IMG/VR virus record: IMGVR_UViG_2778261420_000008
Strand: one strand, 5' to 3'
DNA: 18,723 bases
Source of the DNA: a virus
Lineage: Duplodnaviria > Heunggongvirae > Uroviricota > Caudoviricetes
The notes under the pieces were generated by a model. That model ran no database searches. It was not told the DNA's origin and saw nothing but the letters and a program-made list of their open reading frames with translations. Positions 1 to 14,626 of the stretch are shown in pieces (position 1 is the first letter of the stretch; each line of letters starts with the position of its first letter). The position numbers were made by a program, and so were the translations under genes.

Positions 1-330
1 GGCGTAAACCTTACGCCGGACCACCGTTCCGCCGACCAGACTCTGCAGATCTTCCGCCATCCCGGTGATCATGCCGTGCAGGTTAGAGACCGTCAGTGTC
101 GGACGGGCAGCACTGCCCTTGCCGTTCATCTCAAATCCACTCCCCTGAATGGGATAGGCCTGATACTGCCGACTCTGCCAGGTGACAGACTCACCTTTTT
201 CGTTCTGCTCATTACAGAAAAAGTAGCGATCCCCGCCTACCTCGGTCAGGTCGATTTCCCAGAGCACCACGCTGGCCGACTGCTCCGCACGAATGCATTC
301 ATTCAGCGTTTCCTGTTGTATGTCCTGCAT
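1..330 (-). CDS. minor tail protein L (lambda gpL-like); N-terminal 110 codons only, C-terminus lies beyond the window start
   Basis: Manual translation of the minus strand from ATG at 330..328 gives [72 protein letters not shown]..., open to position 1. This closely matches lambda gpL as I recall it. The start overlaps the gpM stop in an ATGA arrangement. Not in the ORF track because it is truncated by the window edge. Confidence 0.85.
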   Translation of the reverse strand, partial: MQDIQQETLNECIRAEQSASVVLWEIDLTEVGGDRYFFCNEQNEKGESVTWQSRQYQAYPIQGSGFEMNGKGSAARPTLTVSNLHGMITGMAEDLQSLVGGTVVRRKVYA

Positions 331-668
331 CAGATCACCACTTCGTCAAACTGACACGAAAAATCGGTATAGGTGATATGTTCTGTCGCTGACCACGTTC
401 GACACACCACTCTGATTTTTCTGTTAATACCCGGCGGGCGCCAAAAAAAAGATTTATAGCCTTCATGCCGGGCTAAAAATTTTTCAAATGAATCACGTTC
501 ATTCGCCTCAACTTTGAAATCACAGGTGAAAACGCGCAGAGAATGATTAAGTCCATTTGGACTTCGTTGCTCATAACCATCGCCAAATCTTACAGTTTTT
601 ATCGATGGTTTATTTTCTGTTTTCATTCCATCCTCTGGTAACCAGTGAAATTCTTCCGTATTAGCCAC
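330..668 (-). CDS. minor tail protein M (lambda gpM-like), 112 aa, GTG start
   Basis: Track ORF 330..668. The protein contains [15 protein letters not shown] and a C-terminal FDEVVI, similar to lambda gpM (VRFGDGYSQRAP..., EFEQVVN) from memory. Start codon at 668..666 is GTG with GGGG 6 nt upstream; N-terminal FHWLPEDGM aligns with lambda FRWKVKPGM, supporting the upstream start. Overlaps the tape measure stop by 8 nt. Confidence 0.85.
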
Positions 669-3600
669 TTAACATTCCCCCATCACGTCGCATATTTAAC
701 AGATTGCCCTGCACCCGCTGATCAACCATCCCCATAAGTGCTTTTATTGCCTGAGGGCCAATCTCTCCATTCTGGCCGTCATTTTGAATAGTGATTTGGT
801 ATACAGGGGCATAGGTAATATCTCCGCCTCCATTACCACTTTTACTATTAATAGCTCTGACACCAAGAGAACCATCGGAAGTTCGTGTTAATGGCATAAT
901 GGCTTCCGGTCCAGCCTCACCAAAAACACCAGCCCCTTTTGCAAAAGCAAAAAATTGCGGGGAATCATAAATACCGTTCGAATACGTGCTCAATGACGGA
1001 GACTCATAAACACCGCCCTTTGCATTCGGAATAAATTTACTAATAGCACTCCCGATAGTTCCTAAAATCCCCCCAGAAGAACTGTTACTAATGCTGTCGA
1101 AAATCCCAGTAATTGAAGCCTTTAATGCTATTCGACTAAGATCCGAAATCACGGAAGTAGCGAAAGAACGAAAATTTGCCTTGCCTGTCGTGACAAAATC
1201 ACCCAGCGCATCGGTCATCCCATCAAACATCTGAGTCGTGGTTGATTTTATCTGCTCACTGATATCCTTAGTGTCATCCAGCCAGTTATTGAATCCCTGG
1301 GAGGCACCACTAACCCAGTCTCCTGCCTGAATATCGAGCTGCTCGTTTTTCTGTCTGACAATTTCTTTTTCCCGTTCCAGAGCATCATTCAGAGCCTGCA
1401 TTTTCTCTTGAAAAACATGATCTGACATTCCACGGGATTTATCTGCATAGTCACGTTCAAGTTGCAGACGCTGATTGTTATATCCATGTTCAATCCGCAG
1501 TAATTCCTGCTGGCGTTGCTGATTTTTATCGCCAACCCCATAACCAGCAATCTGAATATCATACCCCTGCTGACGATTATCAATCGAAGCCTGCAATGAA
1601 TCACGCCATGCTGTTATTTCGGCGGATTCCTTGATTAGCCTGTTATTTTTTTCAATCGCAACATTTTTCTCCATCAACGTGGTTATTTCTTCCCGGTGTA
1701 AGAGAAGCGATTTCTGATCCTGGGTTAATTTCGATGATGGTCGTGACTCTAGGTCGGCAATCCGCTGACGCCACTTAACCAGTTCCTGTTCAGAGGAACT
1801 TAATTTAACGGTCAACTCAGCTTGTGAACTTAGTAACGCATTCTGTTGATTCAGATGATCAATCATTCGTTGGGCTGCATCATCAGAATAATCTTTCGCC
1901 TTTGGTTGCTTTGGATCTTTATAACGCTCATTTATTTGAGCGATAAGATTATTATATTCTTCCTTTGAATACTGATTCTTTAGCTTTTCCAGTTTTGCAA
2001 GTTCACTAGCTCTCTGCTGCTCCCGGGTCTGATATTGTTTTGAAAAGGCATCTGCTCTCTGTCTGAGTTCAATTCCTTCCTGTTGTCGCTTGTTGTAATC
2101 GTTTATTGATGAATTTAGTACGTCCTGAGCAATTTTTTCTGCTTGAAGTACGCCCAATTGCTGCTTTAATCGTGCCAGCCTTTTATTTTGAGCTCCGCCA
2201 TCTCCAATGCCACCTAACCCGAAAACTCCGGATCGGGTATTTTTTTCTATTTCATCAATTTGACGGAGAACATCTGAGATTTTTTGATCAAGGGAGGCCT
2301 CACGGCCAATATCCAGCATGGAATCCCATGCCCATTTTGCGGAGTCTGCGACAGCTTTCCATGCAGTCTCAAGATAACCAAGATTTTCTTTAATCTGGTT
2401 GGTGCGCTGGATCATTGAGGATGAGTATTCTTCTGTCGCAATGCGGGCGGCCTCCTGCTGGTTCCCTTCATCCTGTAGCGCCTTAATCTGGTTATAAGTC
2501 GCAAGTGTCAGAAAATGGTACTGATCATTAAGTTTTGATATGGCACTGACAGGATCCTTTGCAATTTCATTGAAGTCATTAACCAGTTGTTCGGTTGATA
2601 TTCCTGTTACTTCGCTCGTTTTTACTATCGCTGTCGTCACTTGCTCCAGCGAACTGCTCGCTACCTTTCCCGAACGCACAAGCTGATTTAATACTGCCGC
2701 CGCAGCACCAGTTGTCGAATCAGCCGCATTCCCGGCACGTTGAGCTAAATCGCCCAATTGCCCGCTGGTTGTCCCCAACTGATTTCCGGTAAGAATAAGA
2801 GATTTATTAAATTCGTCCTGCTCCTGAGAGCCTTTATAGTAAGCCAGTCCTAAGACCCCAACGGCTGCTGCGGCCAGGGTAAAAGGATTAATTAATCCCA
2901 GCACATAAGAACCTACCCCTTTGATCGCCGGGCCAATCCCACCGAACATCTCTTTTAGCTGGCCGCCCTGCTGCATTAACACCATAAATGGCGACTGACC
3001 AGTGGACAACCCAACAACAATATCCGTCATTTGTGCAGGCAACATGCGCATAGCAAAAGCCGTTTGTTTTGCCGACATTCCGGTTTTGCTTAATTGTGAT
3101 TGAGTAACCTCAAGCTCACTCCGCATAGCACGAAGTTTTCCAGAAAGCTCCTCATACATTTCAGGAGAAAGCATCCCCTTAGCTTTTGCTTCATTGAGCT
3201 GTTTCTGTTGTTCTACCAGACGATTAAAAGCAGTTCCGACAGGATCAAGTTGAGCAATCAGACGTTGCAAAGCAACAACCTGTTCATCATGCGCTTTTGC
3301 TGCTTCTCGCTCTGCCTGAGCCTCTCCGGTAAGCTCTCGCCGTGTTTCCTGTATTTTTCGGCTATAATTCTCAAACTGAGAACCATTTATTTTCCCGGAT
3401 GCAAACGCAGCATTAAGTTCATCATGCTGTTGTTCAAGATTTCTTAGCGCCGCAGCCAGAGGGTCGATCTTGTCCAGCATTCTTTGAAAGGCCTGAGCCT
3501 GCGCTTCCTGCTGGGCGGCAGCAAGTTTTCCGGCCTTCTCGGCTTCTCTCTGCGCTTGCGCAACCCCGCTCAATTCCTCTGTGGTTTCATTAAGTTTACG

Positions 3601-3894
3601 GACAAGAAATTCATATTCTTCTTTATCAATAAGCCCTTTATCGAAAAATTTCTTTAATTCAGAATAGCGTCGACCGACAGTATCAATTGCGGCACCAACT
3701 GGATCAATAGCTGCTTTTAATTTTGCGAGCGCGTTCTTCTCATCTTCTGTTGCCTTAGTCACTTTCCCTGCGCTATTTGCAGCAGTTTCCCCAGCCTGCG
3801 TCATTTTGACTAATGAGGAGGTCAGATTGTCAGCATTATTTTTCGCTCCAGTGCTATCAATAATTATTGCGAGACGCGAGGTTTGCTCTGCCAT
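661..3894 (-). CDS. tail tape measure protein (lambda gpH-like C-terminal two thirds with an N-terminal repeat extension), 1077 aa
   Basis: Track ORF 661..3894. The segment [43 protein letters not shown] resembles lambda H ([41 protein letters not shown]) from memory; C-terminus [16 protein letters not shown] also resembles lambda H. Long coiled-coil-rich protein directly upstream of gpM and gpL. AGGAG lies 7 nt before the ATG at 3894. Confidence 0.9.
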
Positions 3895-3912
3895 TTATTA
3901 AAACTCCTGACA

Positions 3913-3939
3913 ACAAAAAACCCACCGCGAAGTGGGTTT
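3913..3939 (-). terminator. intrinsic-terminator-like hairpin 22 nt upstream of the tape measure start codon
   Basis: Minus-strand RNA reads GAAACCCAC-UUCGCG-GUGGGUUUUUUGUUGUC: a perfect 8-bp stem (AAACCCAC/GUGGGUUU), 6-nt loop, then a U-rich tract, followed by the AGGAG ribosome-binding site and ATG of the tape measure gene. Confidence 0.45.
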
Positions 3940-4059
3940 CAGGCGACATAATAGTAGATATAGCGATTACGAGGCCACGCAATGCTTTTCTCCAGGAGCA
4001 TCATCGATTTAATTAAAGACACCATCACATCTCTGTAACAGAGTGTACGTAATTAACAA

Positions 4060-4817
4060 CTACACACACTGCTCCTGAAAATACTGGTCATCCAGTGCAA
4101 AGATCACTGCTTCAAATTCATCGCGCTCAATCAATACCGGATGAGTGGCTAAATATTCATTTATCTCTGTCAGAGATAAAGGCAAAGGCACCCCAGCCAT
4201 TCCAGCATAACGTCGGGCACGGGATATTACCGAATAGGCGTACAACAACTCCTTAAGCACCGGGTCTATTTCTGGTTCCGGTATCGGTGGCAACCTGAGT
4301 TTTTCTCGCTTCCATCTTGCCTTTTCCCCCCTTTCTCCCCCGAACTCCGATAACCACCGCTGGGCAGCTATGGCTTTTTTATCGTATCCTGCTTCTGCTG
4401 CTCTTTACCCTGGGCGATGCTGGCTGCTTCTGCAAGGATCTGCCAGTACAACTCTGGATTCTGCTTAAGCAGCGCGATCCCTCGTTCTGCCGTATATTCC
4501 AGTGCAACCTCAACACCATTAACCAGTTCACCAACCCCTTTCCAGTCTTTCAGCAGATAACGAGCGGCATTATCAATGAGTAAATCATCAACAGAATCCA
4601 CCTCGGAAACCTTTGAAATATCAAACTCCTTCGTTCCGACGTGCAAACTGGCATCCATTTTCTCAATGTGGCGACGGATTAATGCATTACGGGAGCGATA
4701 CTGATCGTTATCGCTGCTTGCCACCAACAGTTTTAACCCGTCTACAGGTTTTAAGTCCTTCATTGGCGTAAACCAGCGTTCTCCACCAATGATAATTTTC
4801 TGATTAAGAATAAACAT
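4060..4817 (-). CDS. tail assembly chaperone long form (lambda G-T-like fusion) made by a -1 frameshift at 4374..4380
   Basis: The zero-frame ORF 4368..4817 ends QDTIKKP-stop. The -1 frame is open from the slippery site through ...KKAIAAQRWLSEFGGERGEKARWKREKLRLPPIPEPEIDPVLKELL... to the stop at 4060 (verified codon by codon for 4261..4380). Position between major tail protein and tape measure is the canonical G/GT location. Confidence 0.7.
4368..4817 (-). CDS. tail assembly chaperone short form (gpG-equivalent), 149 aa
   Basis: Track ORF 4368..4829. The preferred start is the ATG at 4817..4815 (MFILNQKIIIGG...) because GAGG lies 7 nt upstream, whereas the track start at 4829 has no ribosome-binding site. 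Ends in the slippery heptamer context. Confidence 0.75.
   Translation of the reverse strand: MFILNQKIIIGGERWFTPMKDLKPVDGLKLLVASSDNDQYRSRNALIRRHIEKMDASLHVGTKEFDISKVSEVDSVDDLLIDNAARYLLKDWKGVGELVNGVEVALEYTAERGIALLKQNPELYWQILAEAASIAQGKEQQKQDTIKKP
4374..4380 (-). promoter_or_regulatory. programmed -1 ribosomal frameshift slippery heptamer A_AAA_AAG
   Basis: Minus-strand codons ...ACG ATA AAA AAG CCA TAG: the heptamer A AAA AAG sits two codons before the zero-frame stop, and the -1 frame continues open for about 105 codons. Same heptamer class as the E. coli dnaX frameshift site. Confidence 0.7.
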
Positions 4818-4877
4818 CCATAACCTCATTCAATGCGTCCCCCTGTAGGGCAGTACCACAGGAGGAATAACGGAAAA

Positions 4878-5840
4878 TCAACTAATCGCCTCAGCACTGG
4901 CTTTTGCGATCACGGCAGCCGGGGAATTTTTTTTTCTGGTTATCGTAGGTGCTTCATCTGCTGCGGTAATGCTCAATTGAACCTGGATAATGTCGCTATT
5001 ACCCCCATCAGGCCATTCACCTGACACCTGAACCTTCGGGAAACTGAAAGTGTATGCCCCCTCTCCATTCGAAAGCGTGAAGCTGAACGGAACTGTTTCT
5101 CCAGTCAGTGTTTTACTCCAGATTTCCCACGCGGCTTTAGACCATGAAAGCGTCACCGTACCGGACGGTGTAAAAGTAGTCGGAATATTTGCTCCTGCAT
5201 AAGGCGAGCCAGTCCCGATACAACGCTGTGTCTGGAGTTTGTTATCGAACTGAATATCAAAACTGTCGATACAAAAACCGTTACCTCCGGCAACACCATT
5301 CAGGCTTACTGCTGAAACCTCCTTAAACGAATAACGTAGCTTTCCTGCACTATCCACAGGTTCGCCTTTGATAAAATTCGTATCATCGGCCTTTGATTCC
5401 CAGTCCAGTCCGGCAAAGGTTACGGTCGCTGTAATATCGCCGTCGTTAGGGATCTGCATTTTCCATGAGCCAACCTGCGCTCCTCTGACGACAGAGGCAA
5501 TTCCGACATCGGACGCATAGGTCGCCAGAGAAAATGTTATTCGCTCATTCCCCATTGTCAGAGAATCGCCTGACCATTCCGCGCCGAAACAGGATGCAAG
5601 AAAATCATCATGTTGACCCCAGCGAAATTTGGTACCAACATCACCGCCGACATCCACAGTGCCAGGCGTCGCCCCCTGAGCCATCCGGGAGCCACCAATC
5701 TCATTATTTTCGCCTTTATTCTGGGTGGGTTTTACTCCCCAGCTTGTGCGTTTTAATAAACTCCAGTCACCACTTGCTGGCGTAGTGCCTGCAACCGTCT
5801 CCCGGATAAATGCCGAGATAACCTTTGCACCTGAACTCAC
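4878..5840 (-). CDS. major tail (tube) protein, 320 aa, GTG start
   Basis: Track ORF 4878..5840. Start codon at 5840..5838 is GTG, preceded by AGGAGG with 5-nt spacing. Lies immediately upstream of the chaperone frameshift gene, the conserved position of the major tail protein in siphophage tail modules. The sequence is not lambda gpV-like. Confidence 0.6.
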   Translation of the reverse strand: MSSGAKVISAFIRETVAGTTPASGDWSLLKRTSWGVKPTQNKGENNEIGGSRMAQGATPGTVDVGGDVGTKFRWGQHDDFLASCFGAEWSGDSLTMGNERITFSLATYASDVGIASVVRGAQVGSWKMQIPNDGDITATVTFAGLDWESKADDTNFIKGEPVDSAGKLRYSFKEVSAVSLNGVAGGNGFCIDSFDIQFDNKLQTQRCIGTGSPYAGANIPTTFTPSGTVTLSWSKAAWEIWSKTLTGETVPFSFTLSNGEGAYTFSFPKVQVSGEWPDGGNSDIIQVQLSITAADEAPTITRKKNSPAAVIAKASAEAIS

Positions 5841-5866: not shown

Positions 5867-6259
5867 CTAGAGCGCGCGATATGGAATTTGAAGATTAAGC
5901 TGGAACCAGCCATTCTTTTCGCCAACGGCTATTGAGGAAACAGCCTGGTAACTGAGACGATCGTCATCCTGAAACTCAAACAGTTCCCGCAATTTATCGG
6001 CTGTCTCAGTAATGAGTTTTGAACCAGAACCTGCGGGGACAAATAACTGAATAATGATTATCCCCGTGCGATAAACAATCGGCCCCGCGCCAATTTCATT
6101 AACTCCAGCCTGCCCGGGAATATTACTTAACCGCGCCCAGATTAACTTACCGGAAGGATCGAACGTTGGCGCGTTCGGATACAATACGTCTTTTCCATCA
6201 ATAATCGTCTGTGCCGTCATTCTGGAAATAACCGTATTTCTGATTTCAGTAAACGTCAT
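5867..6259 (-). CDS. tail terminator / tail completion protein (gpU-equivalent by position), 130 aa
   Basis: Track ORF. ATGA start/stop overlap with the upstream gene at 6256..6259. Size and position between the head-tail joining genes and the major tail gene. Function assigned by synteny only. Confidence 0.5.
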   Translation of the reverse strand: MTFTEIRNTVISRMTAQTIIDGKDVLYPNAPTFDPSGKLIWARLSNIPGQAGVNEIGAGPIVYRTGIIIIQLFVPAGSGSKLITETADKLRELFEFQDDDRLSYQAVSSIAVGEKNGWFQLNLQIPYRAL

Positions 6260-12249: not shown

Positions 12250-13551
12250 TTAAATCCGAAGTGATGTGACTCTTCCGGTCGGTTTGACAATAGGGAATTG
12301 CTTAACGATGAAATAACCTCCGGCATCATTCGGGTGATCATTGCCAGATTTTTTATCAGGCTCCCCCTTATCATCCCAGACCTGTTGCTCCAGAGATTCG
12401 GCATATACCGGACAACGCTTCACATTAACTTTATAGCGACGCTCACCATTGGCATTGCAGAACATTGCATTCATTGAGTTAACGCGATCTTTTACTGGCG
12501 GGTTCGAGCTGTTCACCACAACGTTAAAACCTGCCTGCTTAAGCTGGGCTATATCCGTCGTACTTGCGTTACTTGATTTTCTGGAATCTCCGGAAGCATC
12601 TGGATAAATATAAATCTCCCTCACTTTCCGGTAATCATGCCCGTCATACAGCCAGAAGCGTTCTTTAATGAGGCGGATCATATCCGGCGTATCGTAGGCA
12701 TTGATGATTTCAGTTACCGCACATGGAAGCCCCAAACGCAGCACATGGACGATTCCCGCCATCTTTCCAACGTTAAAATCCATCCCAATATAAATCGGCT
12801 CCCCTGGCTGCTCCACTTCTTCGCAATTATTCAGTTTCCGGTCAAACTGATGGTAAACAGTACCACTTGTCAGGTTAGTAAACCGTCCTAGAAGATAGGC
12901 TTTAATCAGCTCTGGAGGGTATGATTCAAGAAGTGAAGGAATGTAATCTGCTGGCAGGTTCTTTTCATTATCGAAAGTAGATGCCTGCACCAGACCATAC
13001 AGTGAGGCCAGCTCTGTTTTTTCACGCACGGCTTTAACAAACTGCTCGTAGACAAATTTGAATCCTTCCGGCGTGGTTGTAACGTCAATACCGTTGCGAA
13101 GTCCATCAATCTTATAACGCATACGCGCAATTATCTTGCGCCACGCCGTTCTGGCTTTTTCCTTCGGCAAAATGTCCAGTTCATCCACCAGCGCATTACC
13201 AATTTTGAAACCGACGATCGTTTGTGGCTTCTCCATCGATCTGCAGATAGTGGTTCCCCGATACTGGCGTCCGTAATAAAAGTGAACCTCTTTATTTCCC
13301 TCATTAATTTTTACGTTCAATCCCCAGTCAGCAGCAACTTCTTCCACTGTAGGGTAAAAAATATCGCGAATTTGGGGATACGTTGGCGCAAAATATCCCT
13401 GATTTATACCTGGATGCTCCCAAATCCCCTTGCATATGCCGCCACACCCAACCCATGTTTTGCCCGAGCCAAAACCAGCAATATAGGCTTTAAATTTATG
13501 GGGCATTGAAAGAAATCGCGCCTGAGGCACATTAAGCGTCGGAGAGATCAT
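12250..13551 (-). CDS. terminase large subunit, 433 aa
   Basis: Track ORF 12250..13560. Walker A motif AGFGSGKTW near the N-terminus and a Walker B-like LVDELD. Preferred start is the ATG at 13551 (MISPTLNV...) because AAGGAG lies 8 nt upstream; the track start at 13560 is GTG with no spacing. Overlaps the small terminase by 20 nt. Confidence 0.85.
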   Translation of the reverse strand: MISPTLNVPQARFLSMPHKFKAYIAGFGSGKTWVGCGGICKGIWEHPGINQGYFAPTYPQIRDIFYPTVEEVAADWGLNVKINEGNKEVHFYYGRQYRGTTICRSMEKPQTIVGFKIGNALVDELDILPKEKARTAWRKIIARMRYKIDGLRNGIDVTTTPEGFKFVYEQFVKAVREKTELASLYGLVQASTFDNEKNLPADYIPSLLESYPPELIKAYLLGRFTNLTSGTVYHQFDRKLNNCEEVEQPGEPIYIGMDFNVGKMAGIVHVLRLGLPCAVTEIINAYDTPDMIRLIKERFWLYDGHDYRKVREIYIYPDASGDSRKSSNASTTDIAQLKQAGFNVVVNSSNPPVKDRVNSMNAMFCNANGERRYKVNVKRCPVYAESLEQQVWDDKGEPDKKSGNDHPNDAGGYFIVKQFPIVKPTGRVTSLRI

Positions 13552-14626
13552 CTTCATCACTCCTTAATCTGGCATCAACCACATTAATATTGATCGCCAC
13601 AGGCTGGGGATGTTCATTATCCTCCACCGTTTCGATCTCTTTGCGCAGCTTCTGGTTCTCTATTCTGCGCCGTTCAATTTCCAGTTCCTGTAGCCGCTTA
13701 TCTGCACATAATGCCCCGCCAGCAGAAAGCAAACGCAACAATTCACGCCGGGCGGCAGCCTTATCCTCCAGCAGGATCTCAACACCGTATTTTCCGAGCT
13801 TTGACCCTGCATATAATTGCCGCGCATCCCCATCAAGCAGTGTGGTATCAGCCATATAAAGCTGTCCTGTTCCCTCACCGCAGCACTTCGGGCAATCAGG
13901 ATTGGGTATGGCGTTATCAACAAAGCCGAGGCCTCCATATTCCGGCTCGGGTTTACCATCTCTGGAGGCCTGTGCCGCAGCCTTATCGAATTCTGCAATA
14001 TCACGCCACTGGTAGAGATGATTCTCGCCCCAGCAATAACGGCAGTTAACACGGCGAAATTGTGCCAACTGATTGGGGTCGGCCTGGACAATGGCCATCA
14101 ACTGGCTCACCAGTAAATCCAGGTCTGCGGTATAGCGTTTCTGGTACTGATTGCGGAAGTAGCTGATAGCACGATAAACCCTGGCATTTCTAAGCATACG
14201 GCTGGCGTTGCTGTTAGCTGTCGCACCTTGCCCCTCATAACCAGCCAGTCGGTATGCCTCTGTCGGCTTTTTCCCCTGAGCAACCAACATGGCGAATTTT
14301 GCCTGCTGGTCAGAAATACCGAATTCATCGGGGCAGAACGAAATTTCTTCCGTGTCCCCCTCAATCAGGAGTGCATCGGATACAGCCTTTTTTTTCTGAG
14401 ATTTTCCGTTCTGCCTTTGCGCAGTCTGCGCAGTTTTTTTTCGCGCACTTTTTTGCGCAGTTTTGCGCATTTCTTTCTGCGCATTTTTCGGAGTTTTTTT
14501 GATGTAACGACGGGCTGTTGCGTAGTTCAGTCCCCTTGCTTCACACCATGCCACCGGAGATATACCGGAGCGGGTGTATTCAGCAATATACTCCTGCTGC
14601 AACGCCCCCCAGTCCGGTCTGCTCAT
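13532..14626 (-). CDS. terminase small subunit (N-terminal HTH-like region, central Terminase_2-like motif, C-terminal Cys-rich putative zinc ribbon), 364 aa
   Basis: Track ORF. The central EAYRLAGYEGQGATANSNASRMLRNARVYRAISYF resembles the small-terminase signature I recall; the C-terminal part carries CRYC...CPKCC. Sits immediately upstream of, and overlapping, the large terminase gene. Contains a lysine-rich low-complexity linker encoded by the TGCGCA repeat cluster. Confidence 0.7.
   Translation of the reverse strand: MSRPDWGALQQEYIAEYTRSGISPVAWCEARGLNYATARRYIKKTPKNAQKEMRKTAQKSARKKTAQTAQRQNGKSQKKKAVSDALLIEGDTEEISFCPDEFGISDQQAKFAMLVAQGKKPTEAYRLAGYEGQGATANSNASRMLRNARVYRAISYFRNQYQKRYTADLDLLVSQLMAIVQADPNQLAQFRRVNCRYCWGENHLYQWRDIAEFDKAAAQASRDGKPEPEYGGLGFVDNAIPNPDCPKCCGEGTGQLYMADTTLLDGDARQLYAGSKLGKYGVEILLEDKAAARRELLRLLSAGGALCADKRLQELEIERRRIENQKLRKEIETVEDNEHPQPVAININVVDARLRSDEDDLSDA
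14418..14483. repeat. cluster of six palindromic TGCGCA-type hexamers (five exact, one CGCGCA), each followed by a T-run, inside the small-terminase coding sequence
   Basis: Exact TGCGCA at 14418, 14427, 14454, 14464 and 14478; CGCGCA at 14442; spacings 9 to 15 bp. On the coding strand it encodes the basic linker KNAQKEMRKTAQKSARKKTAQTAQRQ. Confidence 0.8.

Follow-up and report, generated by a model that had tools for sequence, protein, structure and literature searches.

A probable programmed -1 frameshift of the lambda G/G-T type in the ydaY family of phage tail assembly chaperones

Introduction

Long-tailed phages are known from textbooks to share a conserved G/G-T frameshift, going by Levin 1993 and Xu 2004 as they are cited in PMC5009743. 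We asked whether it also operates in a tail assembly chaperone gene of the 'ydaY' family and the open reading frame (ORF) that follows it in IMG/VR virus record IMGVR_UViG_2778261420_000008, a Caudoviricetes sequence whose full length of 18,723 nucleotides (nt) we refer to as the window. An original prediction, made from the letters of the window, had proposed that a programmed -1 frameshift at the heptamer A_AAA_AAG joins the chaperone to a downstream T-like extension. The register of the heptamer, its conservation, a mobile zero-frame stop and a switch of frame in the pattern of selection all support this proposal. On these comparisons, we consider it very probable that A_AAA_AAG directs programmed -1 ribosomal frameshifting in this locus, as in the lambda G/G-T pair.

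Reading frames and slip site

The chaperone gene, here called G, lies at 4368..4817 on the minus strand, as do the other features described below. Its zero-frame product is a protein of 149 amino acids (aa), read from an ATG at 4817, which has GAGG six nt upstream, to a TAG at 4370..4368. A mechanical ORF list places the start at an ATG at 4829, but in three relatives (L063, L066 and L068) the equivalent ATG is followed by an in-frame TAG, and we therefore take 4817 to be the real start. The slippery heptamer occupies 4374..4380, with a P-site AAA at 4379..4377 and an A-site AAG at 4376..4374. Because base 4380 is the third base of an ATA codon, the motif stands in the X_XXY_YYZ register as A_AAA_AAG, and it is followed by CCA TAG, that is, by one sense codon before the stop. 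Both frames are open over a 12-codon overlap (4368..4404), which is bounded by a -1 stop just upstream (4407..4405) and by the zero-frame TAG. Eight codons ahead of the heptamer, at 4404, the -1 frame becomes open, and its stop lies at 4062..4060, giving 114 codons in total, 104 of them after the slip. This agrees with the anatomy given in the original prediction, in which the chaperone stops two codons after the heptamer and the -1 frame stays open to 4060.

In translation, the T extension (4060..4374) comprises 104 codons plus a stop, in the -1 frame from GCC at 4374..4372, and it is assigned to phrog_1189. The first start-type codon of this frame is a TTG at 4293, located 87 nt 3' of the slip site, and it yields the separate 77-aa ORF at 4293..4060 that the original prediction had mentioned. 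The G-T fusion predicted from the ORFs and their translation is a coding sequence for a product of 252 aa and ~28 kDa, complement(join(4060..4374,4374..4817)), with the junction QDTIKK/AIAAQRW. Since the next codon after tandem slippage on A_AAA_AAG is GCC, the predicted post-slip product reads ...QDTIKKAIAAQRW... with two lysines, and the predicted junction peptide is ...DTIKKAIAAQRW..., with a lysine-rich junction region QQKQDTIKKAIAAQRW(LSE). The junction proposed earlier, QDTIKK-KAIAAQRW, has one lysine too many and should read ...DTIKK-AIAAQRW. Our own fusion queries in the Pfam, phrog_313 and tblastn searches carried three junction lysines, which did not affect the results.

The presence of the motif by chance alone is only mildly surprising, and the comparative evidence is decisive. 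In-register X_XXY_YYZ motifs number 28 in the 5535 codons of the window genes, three of them of the efficient V_VVA_AAG type, and the chance expectation inside the 12-codon overlap is ~0.06 for any type and ~0.007 for the efficient type. Further in-register efficient heptamers inside genes are a G_GGA_AAG at 2671..2665 (-) in the tape measure gene and an A_AAA_AAG at 14393..14387 (-) inside the ORF at 14626..13532.

Conservation of the slip site and selection on the -1 frame

We compared the locus across a sample of 80 viral contigs, 15 loci from representative bacterial genomes and annotated phage records. The homologous slip site, found in 98 related loci, was AAAAAAG in 95, GGGAAAG in two and GGGGAAG in one, so that 97 of the 98 carried one of the two canonical motifs; a third GGGAAAG was read by eye in a Pantoea locus (L095). 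Relatives in Escherichia, Shigella, Citrobacter, Siccibacter, Dryocola and Scandinavium have A_AAA_AAG, and G_GGA_AAG, the lambda heptamer, is found in relatives from Raoultella, Serratia and Pantoea, at 55-63% identity. The exchange of one motif for the other changes the zero-frame Lys-Lys to Gly-Lys, and protein sequence is therefore not what the slip site conserves. The zero-frame stop is mobile across the 98 loci, falling 1, 7, 25 or 35 sense codons 3' of the slip site. The -1 ORF has 102-119 codons in 95 of these loci and is cut to 41-63 codons in the other three.

More distant relatives have a shorter motif at the homologous place. Erwinia phage Gungnir39 (55% identity) has GCA_AAG_TAA, and Pseudomonas phages phiPSA1 and Aurca01 (about 32% identity) have GAA_AAG. 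The A_AAG tetramer is kept in both the Erwinia and the Pseudomonas phage relatives.

The frame under protein-level selection was followed by per-column entropy in 53 distinct sequences. Over the 180 nt upstream of the heptamer, entropy was 0.79-0.92 at frame-0 third positions, 0.15-0.16 at frame -1 third positions and 0.22-0.32 in the remaining phase. In the first 30 nt downstream the corresponding values were 0.45, 0.83 and 0.41, and in the next 30 nt they were 0.11, 0.84 and 0.23; frame -1 third positions kept the highest entropy of the three phases through the remaining 240 nt analysed downstream. Wobble variability moves to frame -1 at the heptamer, and protein-level selection on that frame therefore starts where the slip would occur, with 87 nt still to go to the first possible start codon. 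What these comparisons show directly is the anatomy of the locus, how it is conserved and the change of frame in the selection pattern.

Alternative explanations

One alternative is that there is no recoding, with T an independent small gene expressed from an internal start (the TTG at 4293 or an ATG near 4200) and the heptamer incidental. The public records that we opened are written in this way, showing G with a separate 'hypothetical protein' of 61-77 aa or with no T ORF at all, and AAAAAAG is not enriched in the window as a whole (8 found versus 6.2 expected). The -1 ORF, however, has no conserved start of its own, coding selection acts on it from the heptamer onward, and its linker KKAIEAQKWLSEFGGE...REKLxLPP is kept across genera. 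The starts called for T are inconsistent: databases and annotations use at least eight, for lengths of about 60 to 138 aa, the GenBank and Prokaryotic Genome Annotation Pipeline (PGAP) calls are 61, 66 or 77 aa or none, and some called starts cut into the conserved core. The ATG option in particular loses the conserved PEPEID...ISRxRRYAG part of that core, and no Shine-Dalgarno match was seen by inspection before either candidate start. The heptamer, or its G_GGA_AAG equivalent, is also kept in register. We consider an independent T gene very improbable.

Transcriptional slippage has a similarly small chance of being correct. Under this explanation RNA polymerase would add an extra A in the six-A run and the ribosome would not slip; the site is indeed a six-A homopolymer, and one A inserted in the mRNA would give an identical fusion protein. 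In Escherichia coli, RNA polymerase slips efficiently only where at least about 8-9 A or T stand in a row. The A run at the site shrinks to three or four in relatives that have G_GGA_AAG, GCA_AAG or GAA_AAG, yet these keep the same two-frame organisation, which makes transcriptional slippage unlikely, and the overall pattern of slip sites fits the rules of tRNA re-pairing rather than homopolymer length.

The least probable explanation is gene decay: a frameshift mutation in a cryptic prophage would have split what was once a single G-T ORF, leaving its second part no longer expressed. This explanation can draw on the many copies in defective prophages, on the 5'-truncated copy in the K-12 Rac prophage and on the existence of deletion derivatives (P0001 and P0123), but the split arrangement also occurs in complete-genome phage records (Salmonella phage SPF_0923 and Klebsiella, Erwinia and Pseudomonas phages) and in Escherichia, Shigella, Citrobacter, Raoultella, Siccibacter, Dryocola, Scandinavium, Serratia and Pantoea, with purifying selection persisting on the -1 frame and canonical slip motifs interchanged, and a random frameshift mutation would not be kept so. 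Decay would predict an in-frame fused form common in functional phages of the family, with the split form confined to dead prophages, and these data run the other way.

RNA signals around the slip site

Several results weigh against a programmed frameshift at this site. The original prediction had suggested looking for an RNA structure downstream of the heptamer, and none is conserved: the fold of the 94 nt after the heptamer has a z of -0.18, and the RNAalifold consensus of 14 diverged relatives reaches -3.6 kcal/mol with six pairs. In an E. coli reporter, even the best V_VVA_AAG heptamers gave only ~0.3% frameshifting when free of stimulators (PMC4066793). One relative, Pectobacterium odoriferum (L093), has GGGGAAG (GTG GGG AAG, ~2420..2426), which fits neither the X_XXY_YYZ pattern of a heptamer nor the A_AAG tetramer and so offers no recognised slip motif. 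It is the sole such relative, and its -1 T frame is intact; a close relative, from Serratia (L094), has GGGAAAG, and the Pectobacterium locus may be a recently inactivated or defective copy, or may have an unconventional slip site. A fold search of T against the PDB gave generic helical matches only, with no informative structural relative, and among the public records opened for the ydaY chaperone family, none joins both ORFs.

The E. coli version of the locus has a hairpin, CCAUAGCUGCC-CAGC-GGUGGUUAUCGG, at 4373..4347 (-), which begins 0 nt after the heptamer. This hairpin is nearer the slip site than known stimulators, and it is not kept in Citrobacter or remoter relatives. Given its 0-nt spacing, together with the z value and lack of consensus noted above, we found no conserved dnaX-type stem-loop at 5-9 nt after the heptamer.

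On the upstream side, 11 of the 14 aligned relatives have an AGGA or AGGAG whose end lies six nt from the heptamer; those from Siccibacter, Pectobacterium and Serratia lack it. The element overlaps conserved Gln/Lys-Glu/Asp codons, which confound its reading. We regard it as a possible candidate stimulator.

The tetramer A_AAG (A_AA.G) is the most shift-prone in E. coli, and the best heptamers reported by Sharma et al. are C_CC.A_AA.G, G_GG.A_AA.G and A_AA.A_AA.G (PMC4066793).

Proposed mechanism

We infer that ribosomes slip, in what ratio G and G-T are made and what T does, along the following lines. Most ribosomes starting at the ATG at 4817 would stop at the TAG at 4370..4368 and release the 149-aa G protein. 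A minority would slip with tRNA-Lys on both the P-site AAA and the A-site AAG of A_AAA_AAG; the two tRNAs would shift one base back and re-pair on AAA_AAA, decoding would resume at GCC (4374..4372), and reading in the -1 frame to 4060 would yield the 252-aa G-T fusion. The slip appears to depend on the slippery sequence, with a shift-prone tRNA-Lys on AAG, rather than on a conserved downstream RNA structure. In lambda, about one G-T is made per 30 G (PMC5009743).

By analogy with the lambda literature, many copies of G and few of G-T would coat the tape measure protein, to which G and the G part of G-T would bind (PMC5009743). The T extension would then recruit the tail tube protein, and the tube would polymerise to the length set by the tape measure. 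As in lambda, neither G nor G-T would be expected in the virion. Lambda tail assembly needs both products, in balance with each other.

A further proposal, which we offer tentatively and consider somewhat improbable as a whole, concerns the family more widely. A_AAG may be the only nucleotide feature at the slip position that is kept family-wide, from E. coli to the Pseudomonas phages, in which case slippage of a single tRNA, without P-site re-pairing or RNA structure, could set the G:G-T ratio, and gain or loss of the first half of the heptamer could tune it; the 'ydaY' remnant of K-12 would, on the same proposal, keep an intact but unannotated recoding signal and T ORF.

Identity of the G and T proteins

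G has a strong match to phrog_313, 'tail assembly chaperone' (profile positions 13-149, 158.7 bits), and the fused G-T extends this match to positions 13-246 of 258 (173 bits), covering both halves. No Pfam match to G was found in a local scan at E values up to 0.01, and the fusion gave only Phage_TAC_18, below the cut-off of that family; G carries a PF27119 tag in a precomputed table, which the local scan did not return. The AlphaFold model of G has a predicted local distance difference test score (pLDDT) of 78.6 and, in a search of a viral structure library, matched many tail assembly or tape measure chaperones, at E values of 1e-3 to 1e-2 and template modelling (TM) scores of about 0.45-0.55. 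As modelled, G has a tail assembly chaperone fold. Its identity as a chaperone rests mainly on PHROG membership and gene position, and the structural support alone is modest.

T consists of a conserved linker (AIAAQRWLSEFGGERGEKARWKREKLRLPPI) and a conserved helical core of ~70 aa (PEPEID...ALDD). Its match to phrog_1189, a family of unknown function, has an E value of 1.4e-36. Its match to the Pfam family PF23812 (Phage_TAC_18) is weak, at 20.6 bits (cut-off 27) and an E value of 4.9e-4, and 14 of 20 T homologues match the same family at E<0.1, the best at 9.4e-6. The AlphaFold model of T is helical, with a pLDDT of 80. No NCBIfam model matched G, T or the fusion, and no solved structure was found by sequence for G or T. 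A combined G and T alignment for a model of the fusion was dropped, as MAFFT placed short T fragments on the G half, and the two proteins were modelled separately.

Rearranged copies of the gene pair were also seen. A natural in-frame G-T fusion of 240 aa, P0001, occurs in E. coli (NB16F79_39920). In it the -1 frame takes over from G at residue ~131, before the heptamer is reached (about 4433..4389 (-)), as would result from the loss of 35 nt between the two copies of GCAGAAGCAG at window 4433..4424 and 4398..4389, a size derived from the protein and the window DNA. A deletion chimera, P0123, has the G N-terminus and the T core, and P0122 and P0125 have unrelated N-terminal sequence followed by the T core. 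In E. coli K-12 EMG2, the Rac prophage gene ydaY (119 aa; L104, 1493..2326) is a 5'-truncated copy of the chaperone gene beside ynaK. This copy matches the window at 100% from 4719 down to 4000, a stretch that includes the heptamer and all of the T frame, so that K-12 keeps both unbroken; its record carries no annotated T ORF.

Locus and gene context

The structural module of a siphovirus-type prophage occupies the minus strand of the window. Over the 1.2 kb that we tested, identity with Salmonella phage SPF_0923 is 100%, nine E. coli phage records reach 97.8-98.0%, and the chaperone segment is carried by 1073 of 5426 complete E. coli genomes. The chaperones form the 'ydaY' family, known from Rac-like prophages of E. 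coli and named 'protein YdaY' by PGAP, and phages of Salmonella, Klebsiella, Erwinia and Pseudomonas have it as well.

PHROG and Pfam assignments give a canonical siphovirus gene order, with portal, head morphogenesis, scaffold and major head genes followed by adaptor, head closure and tail completion genes, and then by tail terminator, tail tube, G, T, tape measure and gpM-like minor tail protein genes. The tail terminator gene lies at 6259..5867 (PHROG/Pfam). The upstream neighbour of G is the tail tube protein gene at 4878..5840 (Pfam Phage_tube_2, E value 9e-32; phrog_290), and the downstream neighbour of T is the tape measure protein gene at 661..3894 (Pfam TMP_2, TMP_4 and Tape_meas_lam_C; phrog_24), followed by the gpM-like minor tail protein gene at 668..330. 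The G/T pair stands between the tube gene and the tape measure gene, which is the position of a G/G-T cassette.

T and the tape measure gene do not overlap, and the spacer between them (3895..4059 (-)) is AT-rich and 165 nt long. It contains a 28-codon ORF (ATG GTG TCT ... GCC TGA, about 4023..3937) and a terminator-like hairpin at 3940..3917 (-), GAAACCCAC-TTCG-CGGTGGGTTTT followed by TTGTTG, ~20 nt 5' of the tape measure start codon. A search of Rfam gave nothing at the gathering threshold, and its sole sub-threshold match was of this hairpin to the 3' end of sroH (E value 0.38). A terminator in the middle of an operon is odd. In relatives the spacer ranges from 39 to 485 nt; that of Scandinavium (L097) also has a hairpin and T run, and those of two other loci (L070 and L096) apparently have an inserted ORF, the start of which in L096, MKKMIVVAFVVLLAGC, resembles a lipoprotein signal. 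The spacer looks like a moron insertion slot.

A separate observation concerns the 3' end of the tail tube gene, where a run of nine A lies at 4929..4937 (-), ~18 codons before the tube stop. Among the fetched loci, the run has nine A in 35 and eight A in seven, six of the seven in the TTCCCCGG context, as in the window; the others have seven A followed by G or T. The eight-A form in E. coli strain 64.1 (L099) is marked 'frameshifted' by PGAP, and all three frames stop within about 20 codons of the run. The variation could reflect homopolymer sequencing error, real length polymorphism or a site of transcriptional slippage.

Annotation of the ydaY family

The probable frameshift is unannotated in the records of this family that we opened, although its kind is well known and not surprising. 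The names given to G in the records are 'YdaY', 'hypothetical protein' or, in two distant phages, 'putative tail assembly chaperone', and a search of the literature by titles and abstracts found no paper linking ydaY to tail-chaperone frameshifting. The main value of the finding is for annotation. Recognising a G/G-T frameshift assigns a function to the ydaY family, that of a chaperone pair in tail assembly, and corrects downstream ORF models with arbitrary starts. The natural series of interchangeable slip sites in one homologous context (A_AAA_AAG, G_GGA_AAG and bare A_AAG) could also serve for calibrating programs that predict frameshifts. How phage tails are understood to assemble is left unchanged.

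Comparison with known systems

The E. coli dnaX gene, which makes gamma and tau, has the identical A_AAA_AAG heptamer and the same shift-prone tRNA-Lys. The dnaX signal has a Shine-Dalgarno-like element upstream and a strong hairpin downstream, it reaches about 50% efficiency, and the frameshift product is the shorter one. The ydaY locus differs in having no conserved downstream structure and a longer frameshift product. A parallel in gene context is ECs1801 of prophage Sp9 in E. coli O157 Sakai, a prophage tail assembly chaperone gene between major tail and tape measure genes, with A_AAA_AAG immediately before TAG. Its cluster, A_AAA_AAG_25, was rated 'true' by Sharma et al. 2014 (PMC4066793). 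Identity of G with this cluster was considered and rejected, since BLASTP gave no alignment between them and the families are unrelated.

The likeness to lambda G/G-T (Levin, Hendrix & Casjens 1993; Xu, Hendrix & Duda 2004, 2013, 2014; reviewed in PMC5009743) is one of organisation. In both systems the gene pair stands after the major tail or tube gene and before the tape measure gene, the 0 and -1 frames overlap briefly towards the 3' end of G, where there is an in-register heptamer, and the extension lacks a start of its own; in the ydaY locus no conserved stimulatory structure was detected. The exact lambda heptamer, G_GGA_AAG, is used by some members of the ydaY family, and the lambda junction, ...SAGKVFD, follows the same decoding logic as the two-lysine junction predicted here. 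The window differs from lambda in its heptamer, A_AAA_AAG, in the 104 aa that T adds (about 140 in lambda), and in the absence of an overlap between T and the tape measure gene, which are separated by 165 nt with a terminator-like hairpin. No homology to lambda G or T was detected, as BLASTP gave no alignment and hhalign probabilities were 0.1-0.2%, in agreement with the earlier view that the chaperone is not lambda-like. The description of the extension as 'T-like' holds for its position, its mechanism and its homology to a frameshift extension in Acinetobacter phage vB_AbaS_TRS1, but not for homology to lambda T.

In phage TRS1 (TRS1_18/TRS1_19), the chaperone frameshift is annotated as a joined two-piece coding sequence (RefSeq NC_031098). 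Its T core is homologous to that of the window, with 39% identity by tblastn over fusion residues 171-250. Its G gene has an in-register G_GGA_AAG that lies 28 codons before the G stop, compared with one codon here. Because tblastn matched only the T part, the G part of TRS1 is unrelated or very distant. One type of T thus appears to be joined to different G proteins, which suggests module shuffling.

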